Origin: a virus
Lineage: Duplodnaviria; Heunggongvirae; Uroviricota; Caudoviricetes
Direction: 5' to 3' (one strand)
DNA length: 5,176 bases
IMG/VR virus record: IMGVR_UViG_2585427755_000007
The position numbers and the translations under genes were made by a program. The notes beneath the pieces were generated by a model. The model searched no databases, was not told the origin of the DNA, and worked only from the letters and a program-made list of their open reading frames with translations. Shown here piece by piece: positions 204 through 977 of the stretch (positions are counted from its first letter, which is position 1; every line of letters starts with the position of its first letter).

Positions 204-977
204 ATGGATATTACTGAGTTTCCTTCTGGAGTAATTGAACACCTTGGCTGGTATGTATACCGATTGATTGATCCTAGGGACGGAAGCACCTTCTATGTAG
301 GGAAAGGCAAAGGTAACCGCGTATTTGCCCATATGCGCGGTGAAGTGGCAGCGGCTGATGATGACGACTTACTGAGCAACAAGCTAAAGCAAATCAGAGA
401 AATAAGATTAGCGGGACTTGAAGTTATCCATGTCATCCATCGACATGGAATGACTGATGAAAAGACGGCGTACGAAGTTGAAGCAGCACTTATTGATGCC
501 TACCCTGGGTTAACGAATATCATGAATGGTGCTGGCAGCAATGAATTCGGCGCCGCGCATGTCAAAGAGTTGATAGCAACATATCAACCCGAAACCATAA
601 CATTTCATCATAAAGCATTAATGATTTCCGTTAACAGAAGTGCAAAGGATTCAGAGCTTTATGATGCGGTTCGATTTAGCTGGCGCATTAATGTCTCTCG
701 CGCCAGCCAAGCAGAAGTCATTCTTGCGACTGTAAGGGGGATCGTTCGAGGGGTTTTCATTGCTGATAAATGGCTCAAATCAACACGTGAAAATTTCCCT
801 ACGATGAAATACTGGGACGAGGATCCGGACTTTGAGGCAACACAAAGTTCTCGCTATGGTTTTGAAGGTCGAGAAGCCCCACCTGAAATAGCAAATCTTT
901 ATCTTGGAAAAAAAATACCAGATGAATTAAGAAAAAAAGGAGCTATGTCCCCGGTCCGTTACTCACCTAATTTTTGA
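204..977 (+). CDS. GIY-YIG nuclease family protein: N-terminal GIY-YIG domain plus a roughly 140-aa C-terminal region of unknown function
   Basis: ORF open 153..977, but codon 153 is TTG; the first ATG is 204 (MDITEF...). Motif [28 protein letters not shown] fits the GIY/YIG/Arg pattern of UvrC N-terminus and I-TevI, with a downstream YEVEAAL glutamate and an Asn-containing segment (GLTNIMNG). Confidence 0.7.

Follow-up and report, generated by a model that had tools for sequence, protein, structure and literature searches.

It is almost certain that the gene at positions 204 to 977 of the window (the whole 5,176-nt stretch of viral DNA that was analyzed, from IMG/VR record IMGVR_UViG_2585427755_000007) is CMoRE (PD-T4-3), which combines a C-terminal sensing domain with cutting by a GIY-YIG domain, and that the second copy of the gene in the window is an artefact. 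CMoRE, or Cytosine Modification Restriction Endonuclease, is the new name for PD-T4-3 (Liu et al., Nat Commun 2026, PMC12923530). This finding is already known: the family was reported in 2022, its dependence on modification in 2025, and its structures and mechanism in January 2026. Because the protein is a characterized enzyme with solved structures, no discovery claim should rest on the gene, and its identification closes a question rather than opening one. Only the context is mildly new, namely a slot beside the invertase gene pin in which two unrelated nucleases of type IV alternate with each other and with at least one gene that lacks annotation, and homologues in jumbo phages that lack an acidic lid.

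The 774-nt coding sequence is labeled "LEM-3-like GIY-YIG domain-containing protein" in RefSeq. A longer reading that starts at a TTG codon (153..977) is the form neither in RefSeq nor in the crystallized protein. As the original prediction held, the gene is real and converges with the gene for a 184-amino-acid serine invertase (1038..1592, minus strand), and the C-terminal string that was quoted from the protein is present in it. The predicted N-terminal GIY-YIG nuclease was also found: the 257-amino-acid product matched PF22945 (LEM-3_GIY-YIG) in Pfam with E = 3.6e-14 and 53.5 bits, against a cut-off of 27, over residues 28-110. The generic GIY-YIG family, PF01541, aligned to residues 16-100 with 13.6 bits, which is below its threshold of 22.6, so that membership in the GIY-YIG superfamily comes from PF22945, a catalytic-domain profile above its curated threshold. 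Pfam gave no match to any HNH family, in line with the HNH signature having been called absent. Pfam had no family for the C-terminal half of the product, and a search of NCBIfam with the whole product returned no family.

Models of the full-length protein were more specific. PADLOC's model for PD-T4-3 (PDLC04031) aligned residues 1-256 with model positions 1-255 of 256 (E = 1.7e-140), and PHROG 5356 matched the product from end to end (E = 4.8e-143). In a sequence search of the PDB, the product matched 9U75 and 9U8D (E = 2.7e-173) and, also over its full length, 9U7U and 9U7Z (E = 2.8e-150); these entries were deposited under the title "GIY-YIG domain-containing protein." Residues 1-257 of 9U75_A are identical at 255 of 257 positions. 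The sole differences are Q169K and N197H (the window protein has Q169 and N197), both in the C-terminal domain, and neither position is among the residues named in the text of PMC12923530 that was read. We infer that the allele with Q169 and N197 behaves like the crystallized protein. Judging by its sequence, the window protein is essentially the crystallized enzyme of Escherichia coli O157:H7, and it is a member of CMoRE/PD-T4-3 (type I architecture, a single-protein system) by every feature that we tested. The match to PD-T4-3 and the 255 identical residues bear out the suggestion of a defence or restriction-like nuclease. Since the structure of a 99%-identical protein is known, there is no need to predict the fold. 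The identical 257-amino-acid sequence occurs in many E. coli genomes, on at least 25 contigs in the 24 of 655 index blocks examined. In hundreds of E. coli genomes, the protein still carries an automatic label, either "LEM-3-like GIY-YIG domain-containing protein" or "hypothetical," and could be renamed.

The system was initially found in ECOR68 (PMC12923530), and a GIY-YIG nuclease is among the systems listed in the defence screen of 2022 (Vassallo et al. 2022, PMC9519451). The protein of O157:H7, which is the source of 9U75, reduced the plating of T2, T4, and T6 by about 5 orders of magnitude when expressed from its native promoter, and cells with CMoRE survived infection at high multiplicity, which indicates direct immunity and not abortive infection (PMC12923530). 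[quoted passage not shown] Gel shifts showed the same preference in binding as in cleavage, and T4(hmC) is still sensitive to CMoRE while T4(C) escapes (PMC12923530). [quoted passage not shown] Defence was also reported in the clinical isolate NILS69: without the gene, the strain became sensitive to two Tevenvirinae phages, and K-12 was protected against Tevenvirinae when it carried the cloned gene (bioRxiv 10.1101/2024.12.20.629700). The term "cytosine-specific" may be too narrow for the family because a 48%-identical homologue from Capnocytophaga, which degrades T4 DNA and not unmodified T4-GT7 DNA, was reported to cut Mu DNA with carbamoylmethyl-adenine as well (PMC12366544).

The crystal structures relate these activities to parts of the protein. 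The closest structural neighbor of the nuclease domain is UvrC; the domain carries an extra tyrosine, and Y17, Y19, and Y31 are each required for activity (PMC12923530). A 15-residue acidic loop covers the active site, and changing its four acidic residues to alanine (the 4A mutant) raised activity, allowed cutting of unmodified DNA, and was toxic (PMC12923530). CMoRE forms a tetramer, a dimer of dimers, that is needed for function: V92S/L96S abolished oligomerization and severely impaired defence (PMC12923530). [quoted passage not shown] For this sensor domain, the authors report finding no homologue in sequence or structure, and they saw no conformational change upon ligand binding; the details of allostery and activation are a model (PMC12923530). 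The region that was first described as unrecognized has no Pfam family, but it is now a structurally defined domain that senses 5hmC and 5ghmC (PMC12923530).

The window protein has kept each residue that PMC12923530 names (Y17, Y19, Y31, D52-D55, V92, L96, and Y127), and R39 and R80 are in place as well (Table 1). The three-tyrosine GIYxY-YIG motif reads G15-W-Y17-V-Y19 and Y31-V-G33, and the negatively charged loop that most members have inserted between alpha2 and alpha3 is D52-D53-D54-D55, as in the O157:H7 protein. The C-terminal half aligns to 9U75 without gaps, and the contact with 5hmC is read from this match. E93 and N105 are probably catalytic residues, given that they have the E-x11-N spacing of a typical GIY-YIG domain and are invariant in phage homologues of 40-46% identity; they are not numbered in the text of PMC12923530. 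The layout is that of a single-gene system, with pin on one side, an intergenic region and then a regulator of the AraC family on the other side, and no partner methylase or accessory gene.

Table 1. Features of the window (positions in the 5,176-nt stretch) and two homologues in jumbo phages (positions in their own loci)
Feature	Position	Strand	Basis
CMoRE (PD-T4-3) gene	204..977	+	ORF listing; 257 aa, ATG start, TGA stop
GIY-YIG nuclease domain, GIYxY-YIG motif	246..533	+	Pfam PF22945, PF01541
Y17	252-254	+	Motif residue, present in the window protein
Y19	258-260	+	Motif residue, present in the window protein
Y31-V-G	294-302	+	Motif residues, present in the window protein
R39	318-320	+	Present in the window protein
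Acidic lid D52-D55 (GAT GAT GAC GAC), autoinhibitory loop over the active site	357..368	+	DDDD at residues 52-55
E93	480-482	+	Predicted catalytic Glu
N105	516-518	+	Predicted metal-site Asn
C-terminal modification-sensing domain, residues about 127-257, boundary approximate	582..974	+	Y127 present; complexes in PMC12923530
Hairpin between the convergent stop codons, 13 bp, imperfect, candidate bidirectional terminator	998..1037	.	Weak evidence
Pin-type serine DNA invertase, 184 aa	1038..1592	-	Pfam Resolvase 1.3e-51 and HTH_7 3.9e-13
Pin-proximal recombination (pix-type) site, limits inferred	1648..1673	.	Arm end at 1673; far-side sequence varies with orientation
gp53-like C-terminal variable part	1664-2017	+	Pfam Gp53-like_C
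Invertible tail-fibre segment	1674..3503	.	Pfam Gp53-like_C, Caudo_TAP (two genes), Collar
Tail-fibre assembly gene	2020-2451	+	Pfam Caudo_TAP
Second assembly gene	2423-3025	-	Pfam Caudo_TAP
Collar-domain variable part	3025-3513	-	Pfam Collar
Mirror arm, exact reverse complement of 1-1673	3504..5176	.	Inverted-repeat comparison
Second pin copy	3585-4139	+	Mirror arm
Second CMoRE copy, identical	4200..4973	-	Mirror arm
Moabite gp009	L017:2501-3265		CMoRE homologue
OBP gp165	L018:2492-3253		CMoRE homologue

From these likenesses, the window allele would be expected to show modification-dependent cleavage of 5hmC and 5ghmC DNA and to defend against T-even phages. Its C-terminal domain would bind the DNA of phages such as T2, T4, and T6, which contains 5-hydroxymethylcytosine or glucosyl-5hmC, with a dimer inside the tetramer reading a pair of modified cytosines that are separated by about 21 bp. 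Between these cytosines, the N-terminal GIY-YIG domain would then make a double-strand cut, dependent on Mg2+ or Mn2+ (CN11/N9G, 2-nt 3' overhangs), and the acidic loop over the active site, D52-D55, would keep the enzyme off the unmodified DNA of the host. The lysogen would thereby gain direct immunity to T-even phages that does not involve abortive infection.

Two copies of the gene are present in the sequence as given, as the original prediction said, but this duplication is very probably an artefact of a palindromic contig. The window is an inverted repeat around a central segment: each arm (1-1673 and 3504-5176, 1,673 nt) is 100% complementary to the other, and the contig has symmetric ends. 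The central segment is a typical invertible one, with two alternative C-terminal parts of a tail fibre. Behind each part lies a separate Caudo_TAP assembly gene, and these two genes meet in a tail-to-tail overlap at 2423-2451. In public genomes the segment is found in both orientations. At two of the loci (L010 and L015), pin and the recombination site are joined to the gp53-like variable part, and at another (L011) they are joined to the Collar variable part. A DNA search of the loci placed both junctions at one and the same distance from the gene, and the two were never found together; these genomes have the segment in opposite orientations. In complete genomes, the far side of the segment joins the constant part of the tail fibre, which is absent from both of the variable parts in the window.

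The arrangement could instead be real, with two copies each of CMoRE and pin flanking the segment as the result of an inverted duplication or a Pin-mediated rearrangement, and with the dosage of the defence gene doubled. We consider this highly improbable. It would account for the two perfect copies in the sequence, and certain genomes do have up to 3 places that match the CMoRE gene. However, across 5,426 complete E. coli genomes, coverage of the window reached at most 68%, which corresponds to one arm plus the segment, and none of the 5,426 had coverage of 80% or more or contained both arms. Also against a real duplication, the identical arms end exactly at the recombination site and the contig ends mirror each other, while each junction is found by itself, in different genomes, and the two share one position with respect to the gene. 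Furthermore, neither variable part is joined to the constant N-terminal part, which complete genomes supply, so that the arrangement could not yield a full-length fibre gene. The pattern is that of a graph assembler's product from a population of mixed orientation. Thus, we return to the assembly chimera, with a single CMoRE gene and not two, as very probably the correct reading. Its source would be a population that had the invertible tail-fibre segment in both orientations and was assembled together, so that a walk through the graph would enter the segment via one inversion state and exit via the other. More generally, palindromic contigs that are centered on invertible segments should be treated as assembly chimeras, and gene duplications should not be inferred from them.

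We also considered two functions other than defence. First, the gene might be a free-standing GIY-YIG homing endonuclease, as was originally offered as an alternative: a selfish gene that copies itself by means of a product that cuts alleles lacking the intron or the gene, and that has no role in defence. Some annotations point this way, as the product has a weak match to PHROG 314, named "homing endonuclease" (E = 0.0026), its full-length homologues in jumbo phages are labeled "putative homing nuclease" or "G-I-Y Y-I-G endonuclease," and the gene occurs in several different prophage contexts. However, those phage names are automatic and do not derive from functional tests, and the nearly identical protein has no strict sequence specificity, depletes reads over the whole T4 genome, needs 5hmC or 5ghmC, and gives direct immunity (PMC12923530). 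Its C-terminal domain binds the modified base rather than reading a sequence (PMC12923530). Cleavage that depends on modification and is relaxed in sequence (PMC12923530) does not fit homing, so this reading has next to no chance of being right and is effectively refuted by the published biochemistry. A more specific candidate, an enzyme like I-TevI, was rejected: the match to PHROG 314 is marginal and confined to the nuclease domain, and the C-terminal domain is the sensor of CMoRE.

Second, a structure-specific or DNA-repair nuclease of the LEM-3/ANKLE1 or UvrC type, serving prophage replication or recombination and not defence, is suggested by the only Pfam match above threshold, "LEM-3-like GIY-YIG domain" (which the RefSeq name follows), and by the reported structural closeness of UvrC (PMC12923530), but we rejected it as having an equally negligible chance, since that likeness is restricted to the catalytic domain (residues 28-110) and the C-terminal half is unrelated, the PADLOC and PHROG 5356 family models match from end to end, and three independent groups have shown a function in phage defence.

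We next describe the setting of CMoRE in complete genomes. The gene is at the edge of a prophage that has a Mu-type tail module (sheath, tube, tape measure, DNA circularization protein, baseplate V/GP46/J, and YmfQ). At this edge, the order is the constant part of the tail fibre, the invertible variable segment, pinE, CMoRE, the AraC-family regulator, and integrase remnants. The invertase of the window is called pinE in RefSeq and has about 93% nucleotide identity to pinE of K-12, where the end of the cryptic prophage e14 reads ymfQ, stfP, tfaP, tfaE, stfE, pinE, mcrA, and then the icdC attachment remnant. The original prediction was right that e14 carries the HNH-type enzyme McrA beside pinE: mcrA comes directly after pinE at the prophage end. 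The alignment between the window and e14 is nearly continuous through pin and breaks at the stop codon of pin, which implies that CMoRE and McrA are alternative inserts at one boundary. With e14 homology ending at this stop codon and the content of the slot varying between genomes, the idea of a cargo swap at a prophage-end hotspot holds up.

Among the 5,426 complete E. coli genomes, the CMoRE gene was present in 838, always with at least 95% nucleotide identity; CMoRE and pin were found together in 566, and pinE and mcrA in 330. The comparison of neighborhoods in other pin-containing prophages, which had been proposed as a check, showed that the slot can hold CMoRE, mcrA, a 215-amino-acid protein, or nothing, although the states other than CMoRE and mcrA come from a small sample of genomes. 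In JNEC-KY208, the slot holds the 215-amino-acid protein WP_001288820.1 (L005:4636-5283, minus strand), whose gene is convergent with pinE at the prophage end. With no match in Pfam or PADLOC, WP_001288820.1 is a candidate defence gene that has yet to be described. In strain 12089, the slot is empty up to the integrase of the next prophage. In R12 (L003:7728-10404) and B27 (L007:5796-8472), genes for a DNA cytosine methyltransferase and a type II restriction endonuclease come after CMoRE, making a small defence cluster at the end of the prophage; in R12 the cluster adjoins ssrA. The restriction-modification pair is a separate system that is absent elsewhere. A P2-type phage has its invertase inside the tail gene cluster, with no cargo.

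The identical 257-amino-acid protein is also encoded at two loci without pin (L009 and L013). In CP025916, the pin-less CMoRE gene has a lambdoid tail fibre, Lom, and GpJ as neighbors; in another genome, its neighbor is an acyltransferase gene. The occurrence of the same protein in these settings indicates that the gene moves between types of prophage as a separate module. The GC content of the gene is 43.8%, versus 50.1% for pin. This picture fits an accessory gene for defence that is mobile and sits at a variable end of the prophage, in line with the original prediction. As a broader and rather doubtful proposal, the position after the stop codon of pin in e14-like, Mu-tailed prophages might be a site dedicated to the exchange of defence cassettes that each consist of one gene, with McrA and CMoRE alternating and the 215-amino-acid protein as a third occupant. 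If so, the novelty would lie in the slot and its third occupant and not in the window gene. No discussion of the pin slot was found in PMC12923530, whose text contains neither "prophage" nor "McrA." A pin-adjacent slot with alternative type IV nucleases may be a small and easily scanned hotspot for more defence genes.

The sequence around the gene gave few regulatory signals. Between the convergent stop codons, the region 975-1045 folds with a minimum free energy of -18.7 kcal/mol (z = -2.49), which is a modest margin over shuffled sequences, 4 of 200 of which fold equally well. The hairpin at 998-1037 might act as a terminator in both directions; it lies in cargo-specific sequence, beyond the break in homology with e14. 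A scan for consensus terminators found no canonical terminator, as the hairpin has no run of T's. Similarly, no promoter passed a consensus scan of the 203 nt upstream of the gene. By eye, there is a weak -35/-10 pair, TTGTGA at 143-148 and TAATAT at 166-171, which has 8 of 12 matches and is below the threshold of the scan.

Finally, we compared the window gene with known systems. The closest is CMoRE of O157:H7 (9U75, 9U8D; PMC12923530) and ECOR68 (PMC9519451), which has the same length and 255 of 257 residues in common with the window protein. It shares the GIYxY-YIG motif, the DDDD lid, the interface residues V92 and L96, and Y127. Its neighbors in O157:H7 are also those seen in the setting of the window gene, with pinE on one side and a regulator of the AraC family on the other. 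CMoRE of APEC O1 (9U7U, 9U7Z) aligns over the full length (E = 2.8e-150) and is reported to have the same fold and tetramer (PMC12923530). It has more substitutions, its lid is DDDE where the window protein has DDDD, and under the native promoter its defence is weaker (PMC12923530).

McrA (EcoKMcrA, from e14 of K-12) takes the same position, right after the stop codon of pin at the prophage end, and like CMoRE it is a single-protein, modification-dependent nuclease of type IV. However, the folds differ: McrA has an HNH nuclease at its C terminus (Pfam HNH PF01844, E = 3.5e-15; PADLOC mREase_IV, E = 6.5e-203), whereas CMoRE has a GIY-YIG nuclease at its N terminus. Pairwise BLASTP between McrA and the window protein showed no similarity (E = 2.3), and with this result and no HNH match in Pfam, a McrA-like HNH enzyme of type IV was rejected as an identity for the window protein. 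The genes also differ in direction, as mcrA runs in the same direction as pin and the CMoRE gene is convergent with it. McrA is annotated as a 5-methylcytosine-specific endonuclease in RefSeq, whereas CMoRE does not cut 5mC DNA (PMC12923530).

By description, PvuRts1I, GmrSD, McrBC, and MspJI follow the same logic as CMoRE, in that a sensing module is coupled to a nuclease, there is no cognate methylase, and the targets are T-even phages. Their nuclease and sensor folds are different from those of CMoRE. GmrSD, which does not appear in PMC12923530, is a type IV enzyme that acts on modified cytosine. PvuRts1I, like CMoRE, is described as specific for 5hmC and 5ghmC (PMC12923530). McrBC and MspJI are described as recognizing 5mC too, which CMoRE does not cut (PMC12923530).

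More distant relatives come from jumbo phages: Serratia phage Moabite gp009, Pseudomonas phage OBP gp165, and a protein of Klebsiella phage N1M2. They are homologous over the full length, with 39-46% identity, and are annotated only as "homing nuclease" or "endonuclease." These homologues keep Y17, Y19, Y31, R39, H43, E93, N105, Y127, and an F-S-W motif, but unlike the window protein they do not keep the acidic DDDD lid. They are also encoded by lytic phages, whereas the window gene belongs to a prophage. They may be phage-borne weapons against co-infecting phages with modified DNA.
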